64,000 nt of DNA, taken from positions 14,984-78,983 of the forward strand of contig JAGLHE010000055.1 of assembly GCA_023143685.1 (NCBI GenBank), written 5' to 3'. The notes under the pieces are model-generated. The model made no database searches, was not told the DNA's origin, and was given only the letters and a program-made list of their open reading frames with translations. Shown piece after piece: positions 2 to 61,903 of this stretch (the stretch's first letter is position 1; each line of letters starts with the position of its first letter). The position numbers were made by a program, and so were the translations under genes. The stretch is from Candidatus Omnitrophota bacterium. GTDB lineage: Bacteria; Omnitrophota; Gorgyraeia; Zapsychrales; JANLHA01.

Positions 2-625
2 TTGCCGGATAAACTTAATGACAAGGAATTCTTAAGGAAATTTGCGCGTATCGTTGGCAATGAGGCCGGGCGTATCAATAACCTTGTTGAACAACTTAAC
101 GATTTTGCCAAACCTGCCGCTCCCAAACCTGAAAAAACCAATATCCACCAACTACTTAACGATACACTAGACTTTTTAAACAGTAAATTCATTCATAACA
201 GAGTTGAAGTGGTCAAAAATTTTATACCGGAAGATTTAATTTTAAACGTCGACCCAAACCTGATCCGTCAAGCTGTCTTAAACATCATCCTGAACGCCCT
301 GGACGCCATGCCCTCCGGCGGAACCTTAACAATCGAGACCAAATGGGCTAAGATCATCGCCCCCGGCACTGATCACCAAACAGATCAGCGATCATCTGTG
401 TCTAAAAAACAATCTGCAATCATCTGCGTTAGAGATACTGGCGTAGGCATCAACAAAAAAGACCTAAAAAACATCTTCGACCCGTTCTTCACCAAAAAAG
501 ACGAAGGCACAGGATTAGGACTGGCTGTCACGCAAGGGATCATGGAAGATCACGGCGGGCAAATTAAGATTGAGAGTACGGTTGAGGTCGGGACGAGTGT
601 GATACTGGAATTTGATTTAAAATAA
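2..625 (+). CDS. Histidine kinase, C-terminal fragment (HATPase_c); the 5' part lies outside the window
   Basis: N-box NIILNALDAM, G-boxes DTGVGI and GTGLGLAV; the ORF runs off the window start. Confidence 0.75.
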   Translation: MPDKLNDKEFLRKFARIVGNEAGRINNLVEQLNDFAKPAAPKPEKTNIHQLLNDTLDFLNSKFIHNRVEVVKNFIPEDLILNVDPNLIRQAVLNIILNALDAMPSGGTLTIETKWAKIIAPGTDHQTDQRSSVSKKQSAIICVRDTGVGINKKDLKNIFDPFFTKKDEGTGLGLAVTQGIMEDHGGQIKIESTVEVGTSVILEFDLK

Positions 626-673
626 ACAACGCAAAACTTTACGCTAAACTACGCGAAAAAAAGATGTGAGAAA

Positions 674-760
674 ATAAACTCGCTTGATAGTTCTGATTGC
701 TCGCAACTATTTTATGCCCGTATAGGAATTTCGTATGGAATCTTTGAAATTCCTATACTA
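674..760. repeat. Dispersed repeat family, copy 1 (about 90 bp; contains 13-bp inverted repeat GTATAGGAATTTC..GAAATTCCTATAC)
   Basis: Near-identical sequence at about 13703-13790, 18741-18816, 38888-38945 and 62693-62745; all copies are intergenic. Confidence 0.8.
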
Positions 761-818: not shown

Positions 819-2009
819 TCAAAGTTTTCCCGCATCGAACAACTGCACGATCGCAACGGCAGGAATAGGATTAAACTGCATGCCGCTACACCGCTTAATC
901 TCTTCGATCGCGTCTTTCTTGCTATTCGCCCGTCGATACGGCCTATCTGTAATCATCGCGTCAAACGTATCTGCTACCGCGATAATCGAAGCAACCATCG
1001 GCACGTCATCACCTTTCAATCCATGCGGGTACCCTGCCCCATCATGCCGCTCATGATGATGCAACACCCCGTCTAAACTCTCGGTCAACTCTGACAGCGG
1101 CCGCAAGATTTCAACCCCATGAATCGGATGCTGCTTAATCACTTCAAACTCTTCATCTGTCAATTTGCTAGGCTTATTCAAAATCGCTTCAGGGATACCG
1201 ATCTTTCCGATGTCGTGAAAGATTCCGGCGAGGTAAAGATTTTCAAAAAATGCTTCATCAAACTGCGCGGTCCCGTTTGCCACCATCTGACGCGCAACTG
1301 CTGTCGCATAATTGGTCACACGTTCAGTATGTCCATGCGTATACTTATCCTTAGCTTCAATCGTGGATCCTAACACGATCGTCGCACGGATAAACAAATC
1401 ATGATTCTTGCGTGATTCCGCCTTTAAGTCTTCAAAAAGCTGAGCGTTACGGATCGCCATCGCCGCGTCTGACGCAAGGGCCGCAAAAAAATCAAGCTCT
1501 TCCTGCTTAAACGGTGTTCCATCCCTCTTGCTACCTAAAAGAAGCACTGCCAGAAGTTTATCTTTATAATATGCCGGCACACAAGCAGCTGCATTGATCA
1601 TCTGCATCTGGTCGCCAAACTTATGTAACAGTTCTTTAAGTCCGTTACCGTTGCTCATCAGACTCTCTTGCCAGAGCATTTTGTTAAGATCCTCGACGAG
1701 GATAGCATTTTTGTTGATCGTTAAGAACCGATACTCTTTTTCGCGAAGGAGCCTAATGACCGGGCTGTCGTGGTCAAACCGGGTAAACCCTTCAGGGATC
1801 TTGATACCGGAAGGACCGCGCGTAATTTTAAGGACATAGGTGTCGCGCACATCATCATAAAGAAGCATGCCCCCATGCTGAAGCTGGACCTTGCTGACAA
1901 TCATGCGGATAATAAGCTTAATCAACAGCTTCGGGTCATGAATCATAATCATTCCGTGGCTGGCAGCTTCGAGTTCTTTTTTGTAATCTATTTTATGTTT
2001 TGTTTTCAT
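819..2009 (-). CDS. HD-GYP domain c-di-GMP phosphodiesterase with N-terminal GAF domain
   Basis: HDIGKIGIP motif and HHERHDGAGYP (HD-GYP); GAF-like N-terminus. The ORF track starts at TTG 2027; the ATG at 2009 is more likely. Confidence 0.75.
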   Translation of the reverse strand: MKTKHKIDYKKELEAASHGMIMIHDPKLLIKLIIRMIVSKVQLQHGGMLLYDDVRDTYVLKITRGPSGIKIPEGFTRFDHDSPVIRLLREKEYRFLTINKNAILVEDLNKMLWQESLMSNGNGLKELLHKFGDQMQMINAAACVPAYYKDKLLAVLLLGSKRDGTPFKQEELDFFAALASDAAMAIRNAQLFEDLKAESRKNHDLFIRATIVLGSTIEAKDKYTHGHTERVTNYATAVARQMVANGTAQFDEAFFENLYLAGIFHDIGKIGIPEAILNKPSKLTDEEFEVIKQHPIHGVEILRPLSELTESLDGVLHHHERHDGAGYPHGLKGDDVPMVASIIAVADTFDAMITDRPYRRANSKKDAIEEIKRCSGMQFNPIPAVAIVQLFDAGKL

Positions 2010-2028
2010 GATAAAGACACTAATCAAT

Positions 2029-26965: not shown

Positions 26966-27340
26966 CTAACTTTTATTAATCAACTCTTTCACTTTTCCCA
27001 TCAATATTTCCGGGTCAAATGGTTTCGTGATATATGCATCCGCGCCGACTTCATACCCGAGTTTTCGATCTTGCTCCTGGACGCGAGCCGTAAACATAAT
27101 AATCGGAATATCTTTATATTTCTCGTCAAACTTGAGCATCCGGCAGACCATATATCCATGCATTTTCGGCAACATAAGATCAAGAATAATTAAATCCACC
27201 GATTCACCGCGCGCCTTATCCAAAGCAACCTGGCCATCCGTCGCTGTTACGACCTCATACCCCCTGGCCTCAAGCTGCATCTTGACCGCGTAGACCATAT
27301 CCTCTTCATCGTCGACTAAAAGAATTTTTTTCTTACTCAT
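26966..27340 (-). CDS. Single-domain response regulator (receiver)
   Basis: ILLVDDEEDM, DLIILDLMLPKMHG, ITKP motifs; 124 aa; overlaps the upstream kinase gene. Confidence 0.8.
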   Translation of the reverse strand: MSKKKILLVDDEEDMVYAVKMQLEARGYEVVTATDGQVALDKARGESVDLIILDLMLPKMHGYMVCRMLKFDEKYKDIPIIMFTARVQEQDRKLGYEVGADAYITKPFDPEILMGKVKELINKS

Positions 27341-29483
27341 AATACAATTTCAATTCTTCCGAAAGAAGTTTTTGATCCTTTTTTGATATTTTTGTAAATT
27401 CAATACCCATTCGATACCGCGGCATCGTCTCTCCGGGAGGTATTCCCAAGTCTTTAATCCATGCCATACGCCCTGCTGCTTGAATAATCTCCCTTTTTTT
27501 AATAAGCTCAATTTTCACTTTGAATATCTCATCCGTTTTTATCGGGACATGACTATCAAAACAAGAACCATTTTCCGAAAGATCAACTGTCTGACATAAA
27601 CGACTTGCCTTATCCGGATATATCGCTTCCAGGGCGGTATTATACTTAATTCTTTTACTACGTCGTATTTCTGAGCCAATATAAATCTCTTTAATATTAA
27701 GATTTGTCCTGGATCCTGCGTTGTCCTGAGGATAATCATTCACCGAATATGCCATCATTCCCAATGCAATAAAAACATCATCAATATTATTTTGCAAAAA
27801 ATAAAATTTTGTTTTATCCCGCACACATTCACAAAAGTCGGACATAACCCTGGCCTTAACGCCGGAAAATATAACGCTGTACTTCCCTTGTTGAATCTCT
27901 GCAATCTCAATTTGATTGTCTTCCCTCATGTGTTCATGAAAAATTTCCTGATGCGCTTCATCCATAATCCGCCTGAGCTGGCCATAAAAATCCTTTGGCT
28001 TCACATCCACCTTTTTCTTAAACTCGTCGTAATTGACAATCATAAGATTAACCAAAAACACCGACTTATCTAATGCCAGAAACTCATTAATCCTTTCCTG
28101 AGTTGCTTCCGGGACAACCGTGGCTGTGTAGAATCTAAAAAGCGTAAAATAAATTTTTGTCCCTACCCCGGCTTCGGACTCAGCCCAAATCTCTCCGCCA
28201 TGCTGCTCAACCAACTCTTTAACAATAGCAAGGCCTAACCCTAATCCCTTTTTGCGGTCTTCACTTTTTTTCCCTACCTGGACAAATTTATTGAAAATCT
28301 TCGGCAAGTCTTCTTCCGAAATCCCCATACCCGTATCAATCACACCCACGCGCACCTTTGACTGCAAGACCTCCAGCTGAACCTTAATAGATCCATTTTC
28401 TCCTGTAAACTTGATCGCATTCGTAACAAGGTTAGTAATAACCTGAACGATTCTTTCCGCATCCACAAAGATCGTGATGGCATGTTTAGGCAATTGATAC
28501 GTAATTTTAATATTTTTCTCAGCAGCCTGTTTTTTAAAATAAGTTCTCGTCTCCTTCAAAAGGGCACTAAGATTAACTAACGAATATTGCAATTTAAGCG
28601 TTTCACGTTCAATACGCGAGGCATCCAGAAGCTTATCAATAATCCCTGTCAAACGGTCAATTTGAGAGCGAACCTTAACAACAATTTCTCTTTGTTTGTC
28701 ATTGATCGGCCCTGGAATCTCATCATAAATCAACAAAAACAATTGTTTCATAACAGCTAACGGTGTACGCAACTCATGCGAAACAGCCGATATGAATTCC
28801 GACTTCATTTCATTGGAACTGTCTTCCTCCAAAGATTCTATTTGACGTTCAACTTCCGCGCGCTTCTCACGCGCCTGCTCCGCCTTAAGACGCTTTGTCA
28901 CATCCCGGGTTACACAAATCATACCAATAATTTTCCCACTCTTATTATAATGTGGGACTTTGGTTGTAGAAACAAAGTTATCCTGGCCATCCGGCCGCGT
29001 AGCGCGTTCAATTTTATCAATAATCGAATACCCTGTCTGCATAACAAAATTATCATCTTCCGTCATTCGCTCCGCGCGATCTTTCGGGAAGAAATCAAAA
29101 TCCGTTTTCCCGATAATTTGCGCTGGCTTTAATTTAAGTCCCTTCGCGTAGGCCTTGTTAACCAGCACAAACTGCCCCTTGAGGTTTTTAAAATAAACGA
29201 CGTCGGGAACCTGATCCATAAAGTCCGTGAACAGTTCAAGGCCTTGCGGCACAACAGGTAAAATTTTTGCAATTGATTTTGTTTTAATAGCCCCGGAAGG
29301 AACTTTTGCTTTTGATTTGAGGCTTATCCTGGATTTTGTAGAAGTTTTTATGACTGCTTTCTTCTTTTTCATAGCGGAAACCTTACAAAAATCCTTTAGA
29401 AATCGTGGCTTATTTTCGAAAAATTTAATACAATATTTATTATTAGTAAAATTTATATTCGGGGATGATATTCGTGCTGTCAA
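27333..29483 (-). CDS. PAS-histidine kinase with a C-terminal degenerate GGDEF-like region and a PilZ domain
   Basis: PAS (VLVNKAY...), H-box SHELRTPL, G-boxes DTGMGI/GLGLGLAIV; C-terminus RRSKR...DLSENGSCF, a PilZ-like RxxxR / DxSxxG signature. Confidence 0.65.
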   Translation of the reverse strand: MTARISSPNINFTNNKYCIKFFENKPRFLKDFCKVSAMKKKKAVIKTSTKSRISLKSKAKVPSGAIKTKSIAKILPVVPQGLELFTDFMDQVPDVVYFKNLKGQFVLVNKAYAKGLKLKPAQIIGKTDFDFFPKDRAERMTEDDNFVMQTGYSIIDKIERATRPDGQDNFVSTTKVPHYNKSGKIIGMICVTRDVTKRLKAEQAREKRAEVERQIESLEEDSSNEMKSEFISAVSHELRTPLAVMKQLFLLIYDEIPGPINDKQREIVVKVRSQIDRLTGIIDKLLDASRIERETLKLQYSLVNLSALLKETRTYFKKQAAEKNIKITYQLPKHAITIFVDAERIVQVITNLVTNAIKFTGENGSIKVQLEVLQSKVRVGVIDTGMGISEEDLPKIFNKFVQVGKKSEDRKKGLGLGLAIVKELVEQHGGEIWAESEAGVGTKIYFTLFRFYTATVVPEATQERINEFLALDKSVFLVNLMIVNYDEFKKKVDVKPKDFYGQLRRIMDEAHQEIFHEHMREDNQIEIAEIQQGKYSVIFSGVKARVMSDFCECVRDKTKFYFLQNNIDDVFIALGMMAYSVNDYPQDNAGSRTNLNIKEIYIGSEIRRSKRIKYNTALEAIYPDKASRLCQTVDLSENGSCFDSHVPIKTDEIFKVKIELIKKREIIQAAGRMAWIKDLGIPPGETMPRYRMGIEFTKISKKDQKLLSEELKLYYE

Positions 29484-32229: not shown

Positions 32230-33375
32230 CTAAGTATGTACCTCTAACTTAACATTTACATCCGGCTTATCTCTTACCAGCCCTTCTGCTATAGGCATAA
32301 CTGTGTCCATTACATCTTTGAGGTTAAACTCCTGAACATCAAACTCCATCAAGCCGGCTTCAAGCTTGGAAAGATCCAGAAGGTTATTTACAAGTTCAAG
32401 AAGGCTTACACTGCATTTTTTTACCATCTGCATATGTCTGTCCTGTTCAGCATTAACAGGGCCGTCCGCGCCATCGAGTATTGAGTCTACCAGGCCGATT
32501 ATACCATTCAGGGGAGTTCGCAGTTCATGAGAAGTGTTTGCCAGGAACTCACTTTTCAGTCTGTCGAACTCTTTTAATTCCAGGTTCTGTTGGTCTAATT
32601 TCTGTATACCTGTAGACATCTTTTCAGTCATTTCATTAAATGCAACGGCTAATTCTCCGATCTCATCTCTTGTTTTGATTTGTATTCTGTGCTCAAGATC
32701 TCCTGAACCGATTTTCTGCGCGCCAAGGTGTAATAATTTAATCGGTTGAGTTAATGTACGCACAAAAATAACAGCAACAATGACACCAAATATTAGAATC
32801 CCCAGAGATATAAGAAAAATCTTTACAGTCACAACACTGACCAGCCTTTTCATTCTCTCTTGTGATGCGCCTAATATTAACGCACCAATAAGCCTGTCAT
32901 CTATTCTTATTTCACGTTTTATCTCGAGGATTTCTTCATTTTCATATCTGACCTTTTCAATATAGAAATTATTATCTTCATCAATATCATATTCATAATT
33001 AATAATTTTATTAAATGCCTCAACATTTGTTTTTCCAACTTTATTTTGATCACTATCACCGATTATTCTACCGGTATCATCAAATAGCGTTAAATATAAT
33101 ATGTCCGTTTCCTCTATAACATTAGTACAAATTTTTATCAACAGAGTATAATCCCAGCTTAAAGTTGCCTCTTTACTGTTTTGTGCCAGGCTGGATGATA
33201 ATGTTTCTAAACGCATCATATTCTCAGTCCGGATCATATTTCGTATATTATTCAGGAAGAATATACTCGAAGCCAGAATAGCAAGCACTAGAAGGGAAAT
33301 GGTTACAATGAGGTATTTTTGCAGAATGCTTAAGGTTAATCTTTCTTTCTTAACAGGGATTTTCAATTCGTCCAT
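32230..33375 (-). CDS. N-terminal part of the same split sensor kinase (2 TM periplasmic sensor - HAMP - HisKA)
   Basis: H-box SHELRTPLNGIIG; ends 13 codons before the N-box would be expected; about 37 nt with stops in both frames separates it from 29538..32192. Confidence 0.6.
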   Translation of the reverse strand: MDELKIPVKKERLTLSILQKYLIVTISLLVLAILASSIFFLNNIRNMIRTENMMRLETLSSSLAQNSKEATLSWDYTLLIKICTNVIEETDILYLTLFDDTGRIIGDSDQNKVGKTNVEAFNKIINYEYDIDEDNNFYIEKVRYENEEILEIKREIRIDDRLIGALILGASQERMKRLVSVVTVKIFLISLGILIFGVIVAVIFVRTLTQPIKLLHLGAQKIGSGDLEHRIQIKTRDEIGELAVAFNEMTEKMSTGIQKLDQQNLELKEFDRLKSEFLANTSHELRTPLNGIIGLVDSILDGADGPVNAEQDRHMQMVKKCSVSLLELVNNLLDLSKLEAGLMEFDVQEFNLKDVMDTVMPIAEGLVRDKPDVNVKLEVHT

Positions 33376-33402
33376 ATTTGGAATCTGCCTTGTTGTAAAT
33401 TT

Positions 33403-33455
33403 TAAGGAGAGCCTGAACAGTGCAGAAATTACACACTGTTCAGGCTCTCCTTTTT
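33403..33455. terminator. Perfect 18-bp stem hairpin followed by a T-tract on the + strand (intrinsic-terminator-like)
   Basis: aggagagcctgaacagtg..cactgttcaggctctcct then ttttt; sits between the SBP and the kinase genes. Confidence 0.5.
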
Positions 33456-33460
33456 GATAA

Positions 33461-34393
33461 TTATTTATTACCTTTCTTTTCTTTTTTCTTCTTGTCAGCC
33501 ATTGATTGCCAGTGGTCGAGATCATAAAATTCGGGGCCATAAACAGTATCAATTACTTTTTTTATTCCTATATAATCTTCCCATGTGACAGATACCCATT
33601 TATCATATTTTCTAGCAACCTTTAACATACCTTCCATATCTTTCTCGTGCATATTCAGGACAGCATCCTTAACTTTTTTCAAGGTCGCTTCATCAACTTT
33701 TTCTGTGTTTACGCAAAAAGGAAATTCAGGAACAGCAGTATGTCTCCAAAGACTCCTTAATTTTGCGCCTTCTGTATTAAATGAATCGAAGGTTGCCTCA
33801 TTAATAAAACAGCCATCGAATTGTTTACTAATTACGGATTGCGCGGCATTGTCATGCCTTCCCAAGTATTCAAATGTACCAAAATAAGTAAACTTATCAA
33901 TGTTTTGATTTTTAAGCCAGGCACTGGGCATTAAATTCCCTGATGTTGAAGAGGCACTGGTTCCGCATACTTTCTTGCCTTTCAGGTCTTCAAGTGACTG
34001 AAAAGGAGCATCTACTCTTACTGCAAGATGTCCGTGATAAGCTGGTGCTCCGGATTTTTGAGCACATGCAAATGGAACAACAGGACCGGTTTCATGTGCC
34101 TGCACACAGGTAACAGAGGCAAGCCAGGCAAAATCAATCTTACCGGTTGATATATCTCTGACAATAGCCGTGTATCCGCCGGTATATCCTGTAGTCGGAT
34201 ACAGTCTTAATCGAATGTCCAGCCCGGTTTCTTCTTGTAAATGTTTTTCAACTGCATCAAATCTTTTTAACATTTCAGAGGGTTTTCTCAGAGGGAGGAT
34301 TCCTAGGTAATAAGTTCTTGCCCAAGCTGCTTCAGCTTGTGAGAAGAAAATACACAAACATACCAACGTGATTCCTATAACTTTTTTGACCAC
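33461..34393 (-). CDS. PhnD/SsuA-like periplasmic substrate-binding protein (phosphonate ABC-type SBP fold), probably a sensor partner of the kinase
   Basis: Signal peptide; type-2 periplasmic binding fold motifs (YPTTGYTGGYTAIV, GTSASSTSGNLMP). Confidence 0.55.
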   Translation of the reverse strand: MVKKVIGITLVCLCIFFSQAEAAWARTYYLGILPLRKPSEMLKRFDAVEKHLQEETGLDIRLRLYPTTGYTGGYTAIVRDISTGKIDFAWLASVTCVQAHETGPVVPFACAQKSGAPAYHGHLAVRVDAPFQSLEDLKGKKVCGTSASSTSGNLMPSAWLKNQNIDKFTYFGTFEYLGRHDNAAQSVISKQFDGCFINEATFDSFNTEGAKLRSLWRHTAVPEFPFCVNTEKVDEATLKKVKDAVLNMHEKDMEGMLKVARKYDKWVSVTWEDYIGIKKVIDTVYGPEFYDLDHWQSMADKKKKEKKGNK

Positions 34394-51754: not shown

Positions 51755-52702
51755 TTAAGGCTTATCATAAACTTTAACCGTAAATGATTGAAAACTTATT
51801 TTTTCAAAGCACTCCATAAAAAAAATCAACTTTTTAAAATAAATCTTCCTATCTTTTTCATTAACATGGAATATTGTATCAAAATTCTTCAAATCACCAC
51901 CGGCAAAAAAAGACATCCATGCAGACCACAAACAAATTGTTCGAGGCGAATGGCAACCTTTTAAACCGTCTAATGATGGTCCCATATATACAACTATTCC
52001 ATTTTCTTCTTTCCAGCAATCATTAAATTTCAACTTAAACTGATTCTCAAAAAAATAATTCCACAATCGCTCTATTACGGCGATATTTGAATTTGAACTA
52101 TATTTTTTTTCTATCGCCTCTTGAATTTTCAAAAGAAAATTATTTAATATCGTAATAATTTTTACAAGATACAAGCTATTTATCTGTAATTTCTCTTCTG
52201 CTTGTGCTCCAGCTTGCTTTAAGTAAGTTTCATTTGAAATTAGATCATTATGAATTAAACAATTCCTTCTTGCTATTGATTCTCTGATCTGCTCCCAATC
52301 GTTTCCCCCAAGGTCAATTTCTATTTGCAACAATTTGCGAACCTTCTTAATCTTATCTTTAATGCATCTATTTTCAATCTGCAAAAGATATTCTTCTAAG
52401 ATGTATTCTTTAAATTGTTTTTCCTCAAAATTGTTCCTGTTTTGTGCAAAACGCTTATCAATTAATATCTCTTTTACCTTTTTTGATGTTAAGATTTCAT
52501 AAGGCCTAGCCAGTAAATATTCTTTTATAGTATCGATTAAAGATGCTTCAAAATAGGCTAATATAAGAGGCAAAAATGATTTTAAGATTAATGAATTTTG
52601 ATTTGTTTGTAAGAGAGTAGCAATTTCGGATAGATTAGAAGTTTTCTTTTGAATATGACGAATTAGATTATCTTTTGTGAGCAGATCAACGTTTTCAAAC
52701 AT
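51755..52702 (-). CDS. Hypothetical protein with a HEPN-like Rx4H motif (Abi_2/AbiD-F-like candidate)
   Basis: ESIARRNCLIHND (R-x4-H) in a predicted helical protein of 315 aa. Confidence 0.35.
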   Translation of the reverse strand: MFENVDLLTKDNLIRHIQKKTSNLSEIATLLQTNQNSLILKSFLPLILAYFEASLIDTIKEYLLARPYEILTSKKVKEILIDKRFAQNRNNFEEKQFKEYILEEYLLQIENRCIKDKIKKVRKLLQIEIDLGGNDWEQIRESIARRNCLIHNDLISNETYLKQAGAQAEEKLQINSLYLVKIITILNNFLLKIQEAIEKKYSSNSNIAVIERLWNYFFENQFKLKFNDCWKEENGIVVYMGPSLDGLKGCHSPRTICLWSAWMSFFAGGDLKNFDTIFHVNEKDRKIYFKKLIFFMECFEKISFQSFTVKVYDKP

Positions 52703-52917
52703 ATTTTACCTTTCTATTTTATGCCGAACAATTATTATACGATAGTCGCTTTTACTGGCTGTTTTGTTATCAATTACTAAAACACTAACATTTTTATCAA
52801 TTTTTGTCCATTTTTCGGACATTTTTATTATATTCCGTTATAAAGTATCACTTTAAAATATTAGCAAATATTGCGACTGTCCTACGACATAAAATTTTTG
52901 CAATACTGAACATAAAC

Positions 52918-53571
52918 TTAAATTTCTACACTTCCATTAAAACCCACTTCAACCTCCCCAAGAAGCTCACCAAACCGTGCCAGTTGCATCCTTTCTTCTC
53001 CCTGTCGAATAATGTCCAATAATTTACGAAGAGGGAAAAGTTTAACAATAACAGGGTCTTCTTTATTATTTCTTAAGAATTTTTTGATGGGCTTTGGAAG
53101 ACTCAAAATTCTGAGAAGCTTGGCGATATAAGACCAATCTTCTCCTGTGATCTTGGAAAGACCACGAACAGTATTAATTCCATGTGCTTCTTTTAATCTC
53201 AGATAATATTCTGCCTTATCCAGAGGGAAATACTCTAAACGGTTAAGATGCGATTGATGCTTTTTCCAAACCTTTTGTTCTATTGTTTCAATATGAGTTA
53301 AATCTTCGGGGCGGTATCCCATGCAGAATTTCTGCCTGCGACTTTTTATAATTATATAGAAGGGGAATTCTGTCCAGTATGTTCTAGGCTGTATTTTTTC
53401 GTATCTTTGCACATATCTTATATATTCGAACATTTCTGCAGAATTAAACCCTATCACTTCCTTTTCAGGCAAAAGAAAACCTTCGTGCAAACCGTTTTTG
53501 TGGCACAGTTCGCACGAAGGTAACATATGGGGTGGATGACTGGTAGTAGAAACCGCGCCCTTCTGAGCCAC
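52918..53571 (-). CDS. ParB-like HTH protein (paralog 1), N-terminus overlaps a copy of the tRNA-His 3' att core
   Basis: LSKITGEDWSYIAKLLRILSLPKPIKKFL resembles the ParB/Spo0J HTH (LRLL.LPE.I); about 55-60% identical to 56659..57231. Confidence 0.5.
   Translation of the reverse strand: MAQKGAVSTTSHPPHMLPSCELCHKNGLHEGFLLPEKEVIGFNSAEMFEYIRYVQRYEKIQPRTYWTEFPFYIIIKSRRQKFCMGYRPEDLTHIETIEQKVWKKHQSHLNRLEYFPLDKAEYYLRLKEAHGINTVRGLSKITGEDWSYIAKLLRILSLPKPIKKFLRNNKEDPVIVKLFPLRKLLDIIRQGEERMQLARFGELLGEVEVGFNGSVEI
53519..53539. repeat. Direct repeat of the tRNA-His 3' end plus 9 downstream nt (att core copy)
   Basis: gtaacatatggggtggatgac, identical to 57258-57278. Confidence 0.75.
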
Positions 53572-53661
53572 AAGTAAAAATCATTTTTTTAAAGTCTCCT
53601 GCCATATACTCTGATATATTAACTCCCGCAATATATTCTCTGCTTATCTCTCTCAATAACT

Positions 53662-54894
53662 TTAGTTCACATTCATTGGCTTTAATTTATCTTCAAGGCT
53701 TAAATGATATGCATGATAATCTGGGCTATCTTCTTCATTATCCATGCGACAGTGCTCAAAAGACCTTCCTCTACGCTTTGGACCGAACACTCTGGCAAAC
53801 TCACCTTGAAACGCAAGAAAGGTATTCCAGTCCTTATCATGTCGTTGTTTATCATTATAATCTTTATGCCAAGGTTTTCGTCCATATTCATCAAAAAAAT
53901 CAGCTCGCTTATTATCATACCCAATAATTATCTCACTCGAAAAAGTAACTGATCTTGGATCTGGCATTAAAAGATAACCATTACCTAGCTTATCCCATTC
54001 TCGATAAGGAATAACTTCTTCCGGGTAAAGCCATTCTTTTTTTGCTGCCGCTACATACCTATACGCTCTTTTCTTTACGATATAATTTATCTCATTTACT
54101 TCGATTTCTGATAACATTCTTTTAGTTTGAATTTGAGTAAAATTAAACATAGCCGACCTAAACATATTGGGATGTGGCCTAAGGACTCTTGGATTCTCGT
54201 AAGGATTTCTAATCCATGATAGATTAGTTAGTATAAGCATTTTATTCAAACTTAATGGGAACAATGTATGTGTTCCCATAAAAGCTATGTCCGGATCTCT
54301 ATGCCTGAGGCACCATTTCGAATTTGGTAAGCAACTTTTATTATATACTGTAACAGGATGATCAGAAATTATAAATTTGGTATCTGAGTCAGAAGCATCG
54401 ACTATGTTCCAAATACATTCAGTCCATAAAGCACAAAAAAGTTGACGAAACTCCTGCATTTTAAACAGTACAAGGTTCTTATCAGATAACCTTACAATTT
54501 CGCCTAACCAATTAAGACCTTTTAAAGTACGTAACTTTTGAATGCTCATGTACAGTAACAGATTTCTAAATGCATCACCATCAACACTTGGATGCTCAAA
54601 ATTCGTGAAGTATTCTATAGACTCCCTCCCGGAAGAGTCTATCTGACCAAAAAATTTTTGTTCTATTTCAGTTGATTCCCAGTTCCCAAAAGCTGTTGTA
54701 TATAAATCATCGACACAAAAACAACTTCGCGGTCCCCACCGAAGCAAAGCTTTCCGTGCGTACATTCCCTTTTTTGTCGATTTTCGCTCAGGATTAAGGT
54801 CTAAATAATAATACTTCTTTTCCTTATAGTCTTCAGGAATAAACCGATATTGGTACCACTTCGGCACATAATGATTTCTTGTGTACTCTGCCAA
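53662..54894 (-). CDS. DUF4238-like protein (family used as the single-gene anti-phage system Rst_DUF4238)
   Basis: N-terminal NHYVPKWYQYRF matches the HYVP.FY..F signature of DUF4238; 410 aa. Confidence 0.5.
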   Translation of the reverse strand: MAEYTRNHYVPKWYQYRFIPEDYKEKKYYYLDLNPERKSTKKGMYARKALLRWGPRSCFCVDDLYTTAFGNWESTEIEQKFFGQIDSSGRESIEYFTNFEHPSVDGDAFRNLLLYMSIQKLRTLKGLNWLGEIVRLSDKNLVLFKMQEFRQLFCALWTECIWNIVDASDSDTKFIISDHPVTVYNKSCLPNSKWCLRHRDPDIAFMGTHTLFPLSLNKMLILTNLSWIRNPYENPRVLRPHPNMFRSAMFNFTQIQTKRMLSEIEVNEINYIVKKRAYRYVAAAKKEWLYPEEVIPYREWDKLGNGYLLMPDPRSVTFSSEIIIGYDNKRADFFDEYGRKPWHKDYNDKQRHDKDWNTFLAFQGEFARVFGPKRRGRSFEHCRMDNEEDSPDYHAYHLSLEDKLKPMNVN

Positions 54895-54988
54895 CTTCTT
54901 CTCTCTCCCATTTATTGTTACTTATACCCCACCAACCACCCCGTCCGACCTGAACAAGGCGATCCCCATTAAAAACAATTCAATAAAT

Positions 54989-55804
54989 CTATCCTAACAA
55001 TTGTGCAATCCTCTCGAAAGCATCTTCCCGGACATTGCTAATAAAATAATCCGTTCCGTTTTCCCGCTCAACAGCAACCGGGCCTTTGTCATCTTTGTGC
55101 GCGAAAAAGGCTTTGATGTTGCTAAGAACCTTTTTGCCTTCCTTGCGATTTTCGATAAACTCTTTGACCTCATTCACCATCTTTGTTTTATCCGGGCAGA
55201 AGCGCAGCATAAAATAGACATAATAAAGGTCTTTTCGCTTTTTGTCCTCGTTTTCACGCAAGACAAAGGTAAGCAATTTATGAAAAACGAATACCGATTC
55301 TGTCGGGATCTGAACCTCCTGTGAGAAAAATTCGATCTTCCTGGTATATTCAAGTACAATTTCAAAATGTTTAATAGTGTTGAGTACAATCTCTTTGCCA
55401 ATCAGCTTCTCATGGATATGCTTTGGAGGATTCAGCACAGTAATAAATTCTACCTCTGCCTTTTCATTAGCCTCTTTGCCTTTGACAACTGGAACAAACG
55501 GCACCATCCTGCCCATATCTACGTGGCGTTCACTATATCCCAATTTTCTAACCCGATCAGCAATAGATTCATCACCATTATAACTTACCAATGTTACGCC
55601 AAAATCCATATCGGTCGTAGTCAGCGGTGTTGAAGATTGTAAAACGCCTGTTCCCAGACCTTGTCCAGTTAATTCTTTGGGCCAGACATGCTTTTGATAT
55701 AAATATGGAATCCACCCGCCAACCAGTACAAGATAAGGTAAAAAGTCACTTAGATCATCAATAACCTTGCGTAACAATTTTTCTGTTGGATAACCTTCAA
55801 CCAA
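54989..55804 (-). CDS. AbiEii-like nucleotidyltransferase toxin (DUF1814 family) candidate
   Basis: LVGGWIPYLY...TTDMDF (GG...D.D NTase motif); 271 aa; overlaps the upstream wHTH gene by 8 nt. Confidence 0.45.
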   Translation of the reverse strand: MVEGYPTEKLLRKVIDDLSDFLPYLVLVGGWIPYLYQKHVWPKELTGQGLGTGVLQSSTPLTTTDMDFGVTLVSYNGDESIADRVRKLGYSERHVDMGRMVPFVPVVKGKEANEKAEVEFITVLNPPKHIHEKLIGKEIVLNTIKHFEIVLEYTRKIEFFSQEVQIPTESVFVFHKLLTFVLRENEDKKRKDLYYVYFMLRFCPDKTKMVNEVKEFIENRKEGKKVLSNIKAFFAHKDDKGPVAVERENGTDYFISNVREDAFERIAQLLG

Positions 55805-56468
55805 TTTCCACCTCTTTCTCTTTGAGGACTTTTAATAAATAGTCAGCGTGTTCTCGACCTCGTTGAGGAAAATGATATAAATCCAAATAAAGTTGAAGAT
55901 TTGAAACAACGGATAGCCCTTTTATTTTCTGTTTGTGAAAAAAAACCGAGTTTTTGTAATATGGTTTGATAAAACAGATATTGCCGCCTCTTTTTAATTC
56001 TTTTAAATCCAACGCCTGCCGGATTTCCAGAGACATTTCTTTGAAACAGTGACTATCCAAATAACAGTACGTCACCGGGGTATTGACATAATTACTGATT
56101 AAATTGGCTCCAGTATGAAGGGTTAAAGCGTATTTGTCTTCCCATTTTCTATTTTCCAGGAAAACTTTCATTGTCTTTAAAATGTCACTTTCACTGTAAT
56201 ATAGATGGTTTTCGTTAAGTTCAAAATTGTAAACCCGAAGCCATTCATTGATCAAGCCTTCTTTGTCAGTGAGTTGGCTGTATGCCTTCCTACCGGATGT
56301 GACCCCTCCTACAAAGCCTTTTTTCCTTAATTCCGCTAATACTTGGGCTGCCCGGCTCCTGCCCACATTAAATTCAGCTTCGAAATCACGGACCGTCCAC
56401 TTGCGCTGCGGCTCTGCAAGCATAGCCCGAATAACTACCGTGGCTTTATCACTAAAAATAGATTTCAT
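55797..56468 (-). CDS. AbiEi-like wHTH antitoxin/transcriptional regulator candidate
   Basis: N-terminal wHTH (RSRAAQVLAELRKKGFV), about 220 aa; operon partner of the NTase. Confidence 0.4.
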   Translation of the reverse strand: MKSIFSDKATVVIRAMLAEPQRKWTVRDFEAEFNVGRSRAAQVLAELRKKGFVGGVTSGRKAYSQLTDKEGLINEWLRVYNFELNENHLYYSESDILKTMKVFLENRKWEDKYALTLHTGANLISNYVNTPVTYCYLDSHCFKEMSLEIRQALDLKELKRGGNICFIKPYYKNSVFFHKQKIKGLSVVSNLQLYLDLYHFPQRGREHADYLLKVLKEKEVEIG

Positions 56469-56658
56469 AACGACTTCCCTTCCAAGAGTAAATGTCTACT
56501 TATTATAATTGTCCGATATTTAACGGACATATCAACATAATGGACATTATGACATTTATTAAAACAATGTCAAGATTTTGATTGTTATATTCATTTTCCA
56601 TTTGTTTCACCTTCAATGAATTTACCCGGACTTTAATATGACAAATATTCTTACATTG

Positions 56659-57231
56659 TCAAATTCTTACATCTATCAGCCCCTGTTCTTCCATGAACTC
56701 TCGAAAACGAATTATTTGAAGCGATTCTTCGCCCTGCCGGACAATATCTAACAATATTTTGAAATTGAAAAGCTTTACAACAGAAGGATCACTTTTATTA
56801 TTGCGGAGAAAATCCTTGATCTGTTCCGGCAAACCCAAGAGTCTAAGAACCTTGGCGATATATGACCACTCTTCACCTGTAATCGCGGAAAGGCCACGAA
56901 CCGTATTTACGCCATGAGCCTCTTTCAGCCTCAAATATAGTTCAGCTTTATCAAGAGGAAACCGATCTAAACGGTTAAGAAAGCCTTGATGCTTTTTCAA
57001 GGCTTTCTGGTTAATAGTATCAATATGGGCAAGGTCTTCCGGGCGATAGCCAAAACGGAAATGCTTCTTATGATTTTCCATAGCAAAATAAAAAGGGAAT
57101 TCACACCAATACGTGCGGGGTGGAATAGTAGCGTATCGCTGAATATAACGGACATATTCCAGCATTTCTTCAGAAGAGAATTCTACGTAGTCTTTGCTCT
57201 CTAAAGAAAAACTCCCACACGAGCTGTGGCA
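56659..57231 (-). CDS. ParB-like HTH protein (paralog 2), adjacent to tRNA-His
   Basis: LSAITGEEWSYIAKVLRLLGLPEQIKDFL; the track start (57309) reads through the tRNA, so the true start is downstream (GTG near 57231 or Met at MLEYVRY). Confidence 0.5.
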   Translation of the reverse strand, partial: CHSSCGSFSLESKDYVEFSSEEMLEYVRYIQRYATIPPRTYWCEFPFYFAMENHKKHFRFGYRPEDLAHIDTINQKALKKHQGFLNRLDRFPLDKAELYLRLKEAHGVNTVRGLSAITGEEWSYIAKVLRLLGLPEQIKDFLRNNKSDPSVVKLFNFKILLDIVRQGEESLQIIRFREFMEEQGLIDVRI

Positions 57232-57265
57232 CACAAGTGCGCCGGTTCGCGTGGGAGTAACATAT

Positions 57266-57340
57266 GGGGTGGATGACGGGATTTGAACCCGCGACCGCCT
57301 GAACCACAATCAGGAGCGCTACCACTGCGCTACATCCACC
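57266..57340 (-). tRNA. tRNA-His (anticodon GTG), with G-1 and encoded CCA
   Basis: Acceptor GTGGATG/CATCCAC, anticodon arm CCTGA-TTGTGGT-TCAGG, T-arm GCGGG-TTCAAAT-CCCGT. Confidence 0.9.
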
Positions 57341-57456: not shown

Positions 57457-58506
57457 CTACTCTTCCCTAATCAAGCTCTTCCCAAATGCCTCAAATTGCT
57501 TGCCTATACTCTTTAATTCATCCTTAACATTCCCGGAACTGTCTTTTCCATATCCAACCGTACCTTTCATTGCCACCGCACCAACTTTAAAATCATCCAT
57601 TTCCGTCTTAAAAGAAAAATTCATCCCCACGTCTACGCCAAACGCCCCCAATGCATCTAAAACCACCCCTGCCCCTGATTCTTCACGATCAATCATCTTG
57701 GACTGCCGCCCCATTTGGGCAAGCTTAACACTCCCTGTCACGACCATATCATTTGCAATAGATTTAAAGTCTGCCGCCAACCCCACACGCCCGTCATTTC
57801 CAATCAGCGCCAAGGTCGCATCCATATCTTTCTTTAAAAAATTTACCCTTCCTTGCCCTTTAACACGACTGCCTAAAAACGGGATATCCTCGCCACCCAC
57901 AACTCCCTGGACTTGAAAACATGTTTCATCAGCCTGTAGAGGATACGACAATGCATGCGCTGTCAAGCTAACCTTCTGCGCTTCAGGCTGCCATCCCTTT
58001 TCAGGAAAAAATCCCTTAAATTGTATTTGCCCGTTTTTTACCGCTAAATGTTTGACAATAATTTGCTTCTTTACTTTCGTCTCTGTTTTTCCTTTATCTT
58101 CTGAAAGGTATTTTTTTTCGTTACTAAAAACGAGCACATCTTTTACTGCGGTGATTTCCGGCACCACTTCGAATGGCTGCGCTTTGGGCAAATCCCTTTG
58201 CGTGATAACAATATCAGGGTTGATAACCTTTACTTCAGATAAAACAATTTTTTGCGGCCCGCCCCCTGCCAGCTGTATAACAACCTTCTCGATTTGTCCA
58301 ATATCCTTTACATCAATACCGTCGACCCTAACCCCAAAAGGAAACAGAAACTGCACGCCCTTAACCGTTACCGTCTTTTGTAAGGCCTGGCTTAATGTTG
58401 ATTCCACCATTCGCTTGCCATACAGATTGACCACCACCGAGGCCGCCCAGAAAACAACAATAATGAAAACAAAAAGACCAATAAATATTTTAGAAATTCT
58501 TTTCAT
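57457..58506 (-). CDS. AsmA-like / DUF748-like membrane-anchored protein
   Basis: N-terminal TM, repetitive beta-rich body; weakly similar to 60917..61903. Confidence 0.35.
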   Translation of the reverse strand: MKRISKIFIGLFVFIIVVFWAASVVVNLYGKRMVESTLSQALQKTVTVKGVQFLFPFGVRVDGIDVKDIGQIEKVVIQLAGGGPQKIVLSEVKVINPDIVITQRDLPKAQPFEVVPEITAVKDVLVFSNEKKYLSEDKGKTETKVKKQIIVKHLAVKNGQIQFKGFFPEKGWQPEAQKVSLTAHALSYPLQADETCFQVQGVVGGEDIPFLGSRVKGQGRVNFLKKDMDATLALIGNDGRVGLAADFKSIANDMVVTGSVKLAQMGRQSKMIDREESGAGVVLDALGAFGVDVGMNFSFKTEMDDFKVGAVAMKGTVGYGKDSSGNVKDELKSIGKQFEAFGKSLIREE

Positions 58507-59713: not shown

Positions 59714-60229
59714 TTACTGAGCTACCGCTTGAAATTCTTCACCTGTTACATCTTTTAATTCAGAAAATATTAACAACTTAGCATCTCTTTTTTTATACCA
59801 TCTACCATTATGCCAAAATATTATTTGACCCAAAATCCCAGACAACCAACCACAAGATATATAACATTAATTTTATCCATAAATTCCCTCACTGTGTACG
59901 GCGGCATTTTATCATATTAGTTTTAATATTACTAATATAAATAAAGGGCACCTGCCTTAGCACATAACTATAAGGCAGATGCTCTTTTTGAAATAAAAAT
60001 CCACAGCAGAGTTGAAATACATTATATATCAAACAGTTGCGAGATTTAACTCTTTGGTAACCCAGGGTACTTTTTCCTCTGGTGTCCATATAATGTCCAT
60101 TTTCGGGATGACACTGTTTTCTTCAAACATCAAGAACCTTTCTTTTTAAATTGGCTAAAATTAAACACGAAAGAAAACGCTTTCTTGCCCAGTGAAAAAA
60201 CTCTTGATTTCCAGAACATTTCTTTCTAT

Positions 60230-60360
60230 ACTTGAAGTAAGCATTAATTGGCAAACCCTGCGTAAGCAGGGGACGCTTAAGCCACGGATCCGATTCGTAT
60301 TACACGCTTTACCCCTACCTTCACAGAAATTCATCAGGGGCCGGATAGCCGGGTTATTAA
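60230..60360 (+). ncRNA. Candidate c-di-GMP-I (GEMM) riboswitch in the 5' leader of the receiver gene
   Basis: GGCAAACC + GNRA hairpin (CCCTGC-GUAA-GCAGGG) + GGACGCUUAAGCCACGG, matching the GEMM-I conserved core GGCAAACC..GGACGCAAAGCCACGG; a downstream CCCCGGAUUUUUU terminator-like stretch precedes the SD. Confidence 0.4.
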
Positions 60361-60423
60361 ACAATCTTTAAAGAAAAGATTTTTTAATTCCCCGGATTTT
60401 TTATTGCCGAGGGAAAACCCGAC

Positions 60424-60834
60424 ATGCAAAAGAGGCCTTTTATGGAGAAGTCAAAAATCTCAGTTCTTATAATTGATGACGAAGAAGAACCTCGAGAGCT
60501 TCTCAAAAAATACATTGAGCGCCACGGCTACTCTGCTTTCACAGCAGATAATGGCTTAGCCGGGATTGAAATGCTCACCCGGCATGAAATAGGAATTGTC
60601 TTTTGCGATATTGTAATGCCAAAGATGGATGGCATTGAATTCTTGCGAGAAGTTCAAAAAAACAAATGGCAAGTTAAGGTCATCATGATCACAGGGAACC
60701 CTACGGTCGAAAACTGCCTGGACTCCTACAAAAACGACGCCTGTCACTATCTCTTAAAACCCACTCATCGTGAAGAAATCTTGCAGTGCCTAAAGAAAGC
60801 AGAAGTAAGTATTCAAGAAAACGACTGGGCCTAA
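60424..60834 (+). CDS. Single-domain response regulator (receiver)
   Basis: VLIIDDEEEP, conserved D in VFCDIVMPKMDG, LLKP motif; 136 aa. Confidence 0.8.
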   Translation: MQKRPFMEKSKISVLIIDDEEEPRELLKKYIERHGYSAFTADNGLAGIEMLTRHEIGIVFCDIVMPKMDGIEFLREVQKNKWQVKVIMITGNPTVENCLDSYKNDACHYLLKPTHREEILQCLKKAEVSIQENDWA

Positions 60835-60916: not shown

Positions 60917-61903
60917 CTACTTCAACTTTTCTGATATTTCATAAAGCACACCCTCAGCAATCTTGGGTTTAGGGATCATCATCTTCCGGGCAGAAACCGT
61001 TACCTTGGTTTTATTCTTTTCTTGTTCAATAATATTAATCGCGACATCACTTCCATTAACCTTTGCCTTAATAAGCCCTTTTGCCTCATTCACTGATTTA
61101 ATTTTCCCCAGCTCGGCGACAATCTGCTTGCTAACACTAAAAACTTCGCTTAATCCAACATCAAATTCAGCCGTTCCTCTGTCCTTGGCAATCAAAACAC
61201 CGACCACCCCTGCAGGTAAAAACCCAACCCCTAAAATAGCTGTTGCTGCATATATCTTTGCCCCTTTAAGAACAGCCGGGCCTGCTGTCTCAACCAGAAG
61301 AATCCTCGCAAGCTGTGCAGCGCTTTTGATATCCTTATATGTTTTATCTTTATCGATATTCATAACCGAAACAACCGGCTGATCCCCTTTACTGTAATCC
61401 TTTTGAACAAGCTTGCCTATTTTAAGAGTCATCACATCGATCTGCATAGCCGTCTCTTTTGATGTCTTCTTCTCTTTCTTCTCCTGTGAGACATCTTTCG
61501 GCTCTTCGACCTCTTCTTCCTTTTCAGCAATTTTAAGAGCATCCAGATTCAAGGCCCCTTCTGTGTTCCTGACAAGAACCATCTCTTTTAAATCAAAAAC
61601 AATTAACGGGAGGTGTATCTTCCCTTTCAACAACGCAAGGACGTTACATTTTATATTTATCTCCGGAATATCAATCAGAACCCCTTCAGGAAAACCCTCG
61701 GGTTGGTACATTTTAAAATCTTTGATATAAATCTTCTGAGTTAAAATTCCTAAATGAAATTTCCCGATTTTTACAGGCGTGCCTAAAACTTGCTTCGCGC
61801 CAACCGTAACCGCTGTTTTGATTAAAACATCTTTAATAACACCAAGCGCGAAAACACAAACAACAACAACCACTAAAACCTTCAGCCATTTTTTATTTTT
61901 CAT
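60917..61903 (-). CDS. Hypothetical membrane-anchored protein (AsmA/DUF748-like N-terminus)
   Basis: N-terminal TM, Lys/Glu-rich central linker. Confidence 0.3.
   Translation of the reverse strand: MKNKKWLKVLVVVVVCVFALGVIKDVLIKTAVTVGAKQVLGTPVKIGKFHLGILTQKIYIKDFKMYQPEGFPEGVLIDIPEINIKCNVLALLKGKIHLPLIVFDLKEMVLVRNTEGALNLDALKIAEKEEEVEEPKDVSQEKKEKKTSKETAMQIDVMTLKIGKLVQKDYSKGDQPVVSVMNIDKDKTYKDIKSAAQLARILLVETAGPAVLKGAKIYAATAILGVGFLPAGVVGVLIAKDRGTAEFDVGLSEVFSVSKQIVAELGKIKSVNEAKGLIKAKVNGSDVAINIIEQEKNKTKVTVSARKMMIPKPKIAEGVLYEISEKLK

Follow-up and report, generated by a model that had tools for sequence, protein, structure and literature searches.

The locus described here raises the question of whether an RNA leader that has the scaffold of a c-di-GMP riboswitch, but a ligand pocket that departs from the consensus, still senses c-di-GMP, and how it acts on the gene behind it. 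The leader stands 5′ of a stand-alone receiver gene in the window, by which we mean the whole 64-kb stretch of DNA that was analysed. On balance we take it to be a receptor-less ‘type II’ GEMM-I c-di-GMP riboswitch working as a transcriptional ON switch, a reading that we hold with moderate confidence. Helices are named after the crystal-structure scheme, and the P1 and P2 of Weinberg are P2 and P3 here.

The leader belongs to the class-I c-di-GMP aptamer family

The initial annotation had called a c-di-GMP-I (GEMM) riboswitch at this site and had named a scan with the RF01051 covariance model as the check. We scanned both strands of the window with Infernal against 4227 Rfam families at their gathering thresholds, and the result was positive above the curated threshold: RF01051 (c-di-GMP-I) matched the leader on the plus strand with 45.6 bits (gathering score 35 bits, E 1e-5), the alignment ran end to end over model positions 1-87 of 87, and zero non-canonical pairs were flagged. 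The whole-window scan returned three matches, two tRNAs and the c-di-GMP-I element, the sole non-tRNA match in 64 kb. GC content is 39% in the window and 55% in the aptamer. The match is far beyond chance, and the leader is a genuine member of the class-I c-di-GMP (GEMM-I) aptamer family. Moreover, two independent metagenome assemblies of one organism (L001 and L002) agree at every base of the leader, and hence its unusual bases are not assembly errors. That the resemblance is fortuitous, or that the leader is a structured element of another kind, for example a protein-binding leader, has nothing in its favour except the modest bit score and is very improbable; an E-value of this size over the whole window at a score above the curated threshold, the correct strand, the 5′-UTR position, the overlapping terminator and the presence of the same aptamer family ahead of homologous genes effectively refute it.

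A second model, RF03167 (c-di-GMP-I-GGC), gives the leader 44.1 bits, a near-tie with RF01051 that is nevertheless below the gathering score of 59, and the G47 that defines that family is U here, which places the leader outside it. A short, receptor-less P3 is common to the leader and to RF03167, and the near-tie reflects this feature and not the pocket, because an aptamer with an AAA linker on a viral contig (L149) also scores best there. The L149 aptamer (607-682, minus strand) has the linker GACGC-AAA-GCC and was matched by RF03167 (68.1 bits, threshold 59), not by RF01051; the RF03167 model appears to track the short receptor-less P3 architecture and not a G at 47, which is a caution for automated annotation.

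Table 1. Coordinates of the features discussed, in positions of the window
Feature	Position	Strand	Basis
Promoter-like site: TTGATT (60204-09), 17-nt spacer, TATACT (60227-32)	60204-60232	+	9/12 consensus matches
GEMM-I aptamer, full RF01051 match	60240-60361	+	Infernal
P1 5′ strand UUAAU	60244-60248	+	predicted from complementarity to AUUAA (60356-60360)
Conserved G, G20 equivalent	60250	+	RF01051 alignment
GGCAAACC	60250-60257	+	sequence indexing
P2 hairpin	60251-60276	+	RF01051 alignment, fold
Hairpin CCCUGC-GUAA-GCAGGG	60256-60271	+	sequence indexing
GGACGCUUAAGCCACGG	60271-60287	+	sequence indexing
J2/3 linker UUAA (family: AAA = A47 A48 A49)	60277-60280	+	RF01051 alignment
P3	60280-60355	+	RF01051 alignment, fold
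C92 equivalent, U	60357	+	RF01051 alignment
Intrinsic terminator: 18-bp interrupted hairpin (60349-60395), then A and UUUUUU (60397-60402)	60349-60402	+	fold
Shine-Dalgarno AAGAGG (60430-35) and probable start AUG (60442-44)	60430-60444	+	database protein, homologue N-termini
Stand-alone CheY-like receiver gene	60442-60834	+	Pfam PF00072
HD-GYP-type protein, GAF+HD_5 with GYP motif	819-2027	-	domain match
PAS-HisKA-HATPase histidine kinase with C-terminal PilZ domain	27333-29483	-	domain match
HEPN RiboL-PSP	51755-52702		
DUF4238	53662-54894		
NTP_transf_8 (AbiEii-like) nucleotidyltransferase, overlaps the AbiEi antitoxin-like regulator	54989-55804		
AbiEi antitoxin-like regulator	55797-56468		
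ParB-HTH ORF	within 51755-57339		

Architecture of the aptamer

The leader motifs quoted in the initial annotation are all present (Table 1), and the minimum-energy fold of the aptamer (-34.2 kcal/mol) is the GEMM-I structure with P2 and P3, as had been predicted, with a short P1 (60244-48 with 60356-60) available. In P2 the pairs G51-C76 and C52-G75 (numbered by the last two digits of their window positions) stand with an AAA internal loop and a 6-bp stem, CCCUGC/GCAGGG, which is capped by a GUAA tetraloop (60262-65) of GYRA type within the GNRA family, and the 3′ side carries GAC, of which C60274 is the C44 equivalent. GYRA loops accompany receptor-less ‘type II’ GEMM-I aptamers (PMC1950547, PMC11218506), and no tetraloop receptor was found in P3 of the leader aptamer. 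The lower stem of P3 is formed by AGCC-A-CGG with CCG-GGUU and the upper stem by AUCCG/CGGAU, with the bulged A84 present and an AG bulge that includes G60348, the equivalent of G83, the partner of C44. The C44-G83 interhelical pair is universally conserved (PMC3764141, PMC4744006), and C60274 and G60348, which hold these positions, would be expected to form it. All 8 pairs of the P2 region and all 12 of P3 are standard, and the pairs G21-C46 and C22-G45 are kept together with A48 and A49, bases with roles in the known structures (PMC3764141, PMC5049679). The distal part of P3 is a 50-nt branched insertion (60294-60343) with two small hairpins, where the consensus tip has roughly 16 nt.

Adding P1 costs +2.1 kcal/mol in the nearest-neighbour model, and this helix is thus marginal without ligand. 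In the canonical register it would consist of U44-A60, U45-A59 and A46-U58 only, with A47 U48 U49 G50 then forming J1/2 (window positions, abbreviated as above). Its top pair, G14-C93 in Vc2, is A60246-U60358 here, a compensatory change.

The leader shares with ‘type II’ GEMM-I aptamers (Weinberg 2007, Fig. 2B type) the core G-GC-AAA-P2(GNRA)-GAC-GC ... AGCC-A-CGG ... AG-CCG-GGUU, the GYRA loop without receptor, the C44-G83 pair, the 5′-UTR position and a cheY-type gene downstream; it is unlike them in having UUAA and not AAA, U92 and not C, a P1 of A-U pairs only, the branched insertion at the P3 tip, and a score of 45.6 against 68-88 bits. The three-helix junction architecture is also that of Vibrio cholerae Vc2 and Vc1 (3IRW/3MXH; Vc1 lies upstream of gbpA), and the lower P3 of Vc2 (AGCC-N-CNG / ...GGUU) and its G20 are the same in the leader, whereas Vc2 has a GAAA loop with tetraloop receptor, A47, C92 and a P1 topped by G-C, and the leader has none of these four.

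A ligand pocket off the consensus

The ligand in Vc2 is read by G20 at one guanine, by C92 at the other and by A47 stacked between them, with G20 pairing via the Hoogsteen face (PMC5888326, PMC5049679) and C92 forming a Watson-Crick pair with the second guanine. Aligned to RF01051, the leader keeps G20 and the equivalents of A48 and A49, and it has U or UU in the slot of the intercalating A47, at which the alignments place a gap or an insert; with U in place of C92, two of the three ligand-contacting bases (A47 and C92) are off the norm. The initial annotation had recorded the UU, in GGACGCUUAAGCC, and its significance was missed there, since this UU replaces the ligand-intercalating adenine. 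The pocket is off the consensus at the A47 slot (UU) and at C92 (U), and c-di-GMP is hence a predicted ligand.

The linker has been described as ‘virtually always AAA’, with two exceptions in 322 (PMC1950547), and the intercalating A47 was reported to be conserved in all class-I members, C92 being less conserved than A47 (PMC9049102). For comparison we read the linkers of nine further genuine GEMM-I aptamers (L006, L007, L107, L108, L139, L140, L142, L143 and L149), and none of the nine has U at the 47 slot; positions 91-92 are G-C in all eight that remain after removal of L143, whose 3′ side was unparsed, and U92 was found in none of these eight. U92, which would make a G-U wobble with the ligand, is reportedly a common natural variant, said to be described by Smith in 2010. 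Strong members of the family can carry an extra linker base (AAAA in L107, 71.9 bits; UAAA in L108, 68.4 bits), both keeping three adenines, and the leader differs from an L108-type linker by one A-to-U change plus C92U. The J1/2 of the leader (AAUUG) is within normal variation. In the window, L107 and L108 the 4-nt linker goes along with a J1/2 that is short and U-rich; a coupling of the two was considered and is unsupported, because J1/2 is highly variable in five viral-contig aptamers with AAA linkers, a sample too small for rejecting it.

A second UUAA linker was sought in species-representative genomes with the pattern GGCAAACC-N(8-38)-GGACGCNNAAGCC for 4-nt linkers, and none was present among the matches listed (at least 120, with exact flanks required); almost all of the matches listed are chance occurrences in GC-rich coding DNA, and the real GEMM-I aptamers among them are L107 and L108 only. 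In JGI metagenomes, with a pattern that demanded exact GGCAAACC and GGACGC and which divergent relatives escape, there were three matches, all by chance and without a P2 hairpin.

Changes at two of three contact positions, with helices and tertiary-contact bases intact, are the signature used for specificity variants, and the leader might accordingly be a retuned GEMM-I scaffold that prefers a related dinucleotide and uses the same terminator-based ON mechanism. The candidates would be 3′3′-cGAMP or c-di-AMP (U92 could form a Watson-Crick pair with adenine), or a linear dinucleotide. Rare natural variants do sense c-AMP-GMP (PMC7266159), G20A binds cGAMP and G20A/C92U binds c-di-AMP (PMC7288161), and neither U at the 47 slot nor U92 occurs in the other genuine aptamers that were read. 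In the c-AMP-GMP (3′3′-cGAMP) riboswitches, GEMM-Ib of Geobacter, the scaffold is the same and a pocket substitution retunes specificity (PMC7266159, PMC7288161), but there G is changed to A at 20 with A47 and C92 kept, whereas the leader keeps G20 and is changed at 47 and 92, and their gene context is exoelectrogenesis, not a receiver. GEMM-Ib is recognized by A at 20 with the rest of the pocket canonical, and position 20 of the leader is G. This unchanged G20, the base altered in natural cGAMP riboswitches, thus argues against retuning, as does the confinement of the variant to a single lineage, which with no second UUAA linker in the scans gives no conserved variant class; moreover, a receiver that has HD-GYP and PilZ genes in its neighbourhood is a typical c-di-GMP context, and no synthase for another dinucleotide was seen within 64 kb. 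We regard a retuned scaffold of this kind as unlikely, and are similarly doubtful that the aptamer binds some different ligand, such as a cyclic or linear dinucleotide with adenine in it, and founds a new specificity variant in the little-studied Omnitrophota.

Judged from the sequence, c-di-GMP is a likely ligand of the leader RNA, and it is the most likely one, because G20 is kept in a genomic context typical for c-di-GMP, because the wild-type affinity of the class is picomolar (PMC7288161), so that the sensing of cellular levels would survive much loss, and because the V. cholerae Vc1 mutant A39T, an A-to-T change at the A47 equivalent, showed wild-type-like regulation in vivo (PMC4744006).

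The receiver gene and its surroundings

The downstream gene had been annotated as a stand-alone receiver, and PF00072 bears this out with 95.4 bits (cut-off 30.2) as the sole domain of the protein, which has no output domain. D18, D19, D62, T90 and K112 align with D12, D13, D57, T87 and K109 of CheY, and the receiver is intact, with the acidic pair, the phospho-acceptor Asp, the Thr and the Lys all kept. Its C terminus is about 12-14 residues short of the conserved tail of the three closest homologues. The Shine-Dalgarno sequence AAGAGG sits 6 nt 5′ of the AUG at 60442, which is also where the database copy starts (P0001, a ‘response regulator’ of 130 aa in a Candidatus Omnitrophica MAG) and with which the N-termini of homologues agree; the protein database record has this 130-aa form and does not have the 136-aa form starting at 60424, and the true start is most likely 60442 and not the ATG at 60424. 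The gene that follows is convergent, which leaves the receiver monocistronic and the sole gene under the control of the leader. On either side of the riboswitch locus a DUF748/AsmA-like membrane protein is encoded (57457-58506 and 60917-61903, both minus strand), and the two are paralogues. A second hairpin with a U-run (GCACCUGCCUUAG...CUAUAAGGCAGAUGC, then UCUUUUUG) is present at 59946-59992 (plus strand) in the long intergenic region, about 210 nt 5′ of the riboswitch promoter, and might serve to insulate the transcription unit of the receiver.

The initial annotation had pointed to c-di-GMP signalling genes, and HD-GYP-type and PilZ proteins are indeed encoded within the window (Table 1). 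The PilZ-bearing histidine kinase (27333-29483, minus strand) shares the window with the riboswitch-controlled receiver, and is itself a candidate for direct c-di-GMP input to a two-component pathway. Elsewhere, an inverted repeat of 19 perfect base pairs, with a loop of 11 nt and UUUUU behind it, lies at 33404-33452 (-36.1 kcal/mol, z = -7.9), where the minus-strand ORFs 32230-33552 and 33461-34393 meet, and looks like a strong intrinsic terminator, possibly a bidirectional one; sub-threshold ‘mir-5879’ matches on both strands at this site were rejected as artefactual, the site being palindromic. Genes of defence or toxin-antitoxin type follow one another at 51755-57339 (Table 1), adjoining a tRNA gene (57268-57339, minus strand), and this stretch may have been integrated as an island.

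Leaders of homologous receivers

The receiver has no close relatives, the best being 46-51% identical. GEMM-I-like aptamers and terminators are found in the leaders of two of the three closest homologue groups, represented by L007 (RF01051 score 40.6 bits, above threshold) and L006 (30.3 bits, sub-threshold), and no GEMM was found in the 150-nt leaders of L004 and L005 from the third group (homologue P0002). Because homologous receivers share GEMM-I leaders, the association of aptamer family and receiver family predates the lineage of the window. The P2 stems are CCCUGC/GCAGGG in the window, CCAAGA/UCUUGG in L007, CCAAGG/CCUUGG in L006 and CCGGGU/GCCCGG in L108, and their differences are compensatory. 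The terminators of L006 and L007 are downstream of the aptamer and do not overlap it; thus the comparison lends no support to the switching direction proposed below, and the switching logic of these two leaders may differ from that of the window. Both also carry a two-hairpin insertion of ~60 nt (L007 656-717, L006 957-1017) between GGGAC (C44) and the G45-C46 closing pair, an unusual site that is common to the two, and their Rfam scores are lowered by this insertion.

A terminator that competes with the aptamer

The initial annotation had pointed to a CCGGG/CCCGG alternative pairing followed by a U-tract as a terminator-type expression platform, and this was borne out: CCGGG (60349-60353) pairs with CCCGG (60391-60395) at the foot of a long terminator hairpin, which is in competition with the aptamer and which a simple terminator scan misses because of its internal loops. 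The 5′ arm of the terminator (60349-60361, 13 nt) doubles as the 3′ strand in lower P3 and in P1, and because this segment serves both, the aptamer and terminator folds exclude each other. The folding energy over 60240-60405 is -43.8 kcal/mol in the terminator state and -36.3 kcal/mol in the aptamer state, a difference of about 7.5; the terminator hairpin alone has -17.6 kcal/mol, and when the aptamer is held a residual AU top hairpin of -2.6 kcal/mol is left. Since the terminator fold is the more stable, termination would be the default and ligand would give read-through, an ON direction to which structure and energies point. Weinberg 2007 found that in 78 of 322 GEMMs the second hairpin is overlapped by a terminator on its 3′ side, predicted that ligand raises expression, and listed cheY among the recurrent GEMM-controlled genes (PMC1950547).

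The aptamer lies in the 5′-UTR, on the strand of the gene, and ends 80 nt ahead of the start codon. From the position of the promoter-like site (Table 1), transcription would start at about 60238-60241, just ahead of the aptamer; promoter-like sites are no commoner here than in shuffled sequence, and the promoter assignment, a weak one, counts against the reading as a switch. In the proposed mechanism, RNA polymerase would start near 60240 and transcribe the aptamer with P2, the long P3 and the short AU-only P1. If no ligand is bound, the next 45 nt would nucleate a small hairpin (60363-60381), which would zip downward, displacing the 3′ strand of P1 and then the base of P3, and the 18-bp terminator would be completed before the U6 tract, so that transcription would end ahead of the gene. 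If c-di-GMP occupies the three-way junction, P1 would be held together with the lower end of P3, only the weak AU hairpin could form, and the polymerase would read through so that the receiver is made. That the receiver gene has stayed intact is an argument for read-through taking place.

UUGGCAA (60248-60254), which holds G20 and the G21-C22 core, is complementary to UUGCCGA (60404-60410) immediately after the U-tract, and this pairing is present in the minimum-energy fold of the full leader; such pairing might tie up the core of the aptamer in transcripts that read through, or be a coincidence.

The leader might also descend from a c-di-GMP riboswitch that has lost ligand binding and be left as a constitutive attenuator or structured leader, with the long terminator fixing a low level of read-through. 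The loss of A47 and C92, the weakening of the top pair of P1 to A-U, the direction of the changes, all towards U or A in a genome of 39% GC, the low score beside other members, and a receiver without the last residues of its homologues are all what such decay would leave. Random decay should nevertheless strike stems, and here every P2-region and P3 pair is standard, C44/G83 and the GNRA loop are intact, the change from G14-C93 to A46-U58 is compensatory, and the mutually exclusive terminator is precisely positioned; moreover, the receiver keeps every catalytic residue, suggesting that its expression still matters, and from a picomolar wild-type affinity (PMC7288161) a large loss could still leave a physiological sensor. 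A decayed sensor is in our view a lesser possibility, though one to be taken seriously, and a working switch is favoured over a relic because none of the 20 modelled pairs departs from the standard ones, no tertiary-contact base is missing and the change in P1 is compensatory, and because the competing terminator is precisely placed ahead of an intact receiver gene. Counting against a working c-di-GMP switch are a score that is about 25-40 bits under that of typical members (68-88 bits), a variant pocket that is found in one lineage only and has no sign of selection on it, and a P1 of merely 3-5 A-U pairs.

Implications

The leader adds one more case to a riboswitch class that is well known, and its ON-switch platform is a textbook one; it is ordinary in design and odd in its pocket. 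A full-text search returned no riboswitch papers for the phylum; only a ComFB receptor paper and its preprint mention both terms, separately. For annotation, an uncultured Omnitrophica genome gains a putative c-di-GMP receptor, with a CheY-like receiver as the gene under its control, and the locus would link the level of a second messenger to the dosage of a two-component signalling protein. It also offers a natural test of the ligand-stacking base that is best conserved in the class: if c-di-GMP is still bound, A47 would be dispensable in a native context, and if another ligand is bound, the leader would be a new specificity variant of the GEMM-I scaffold.
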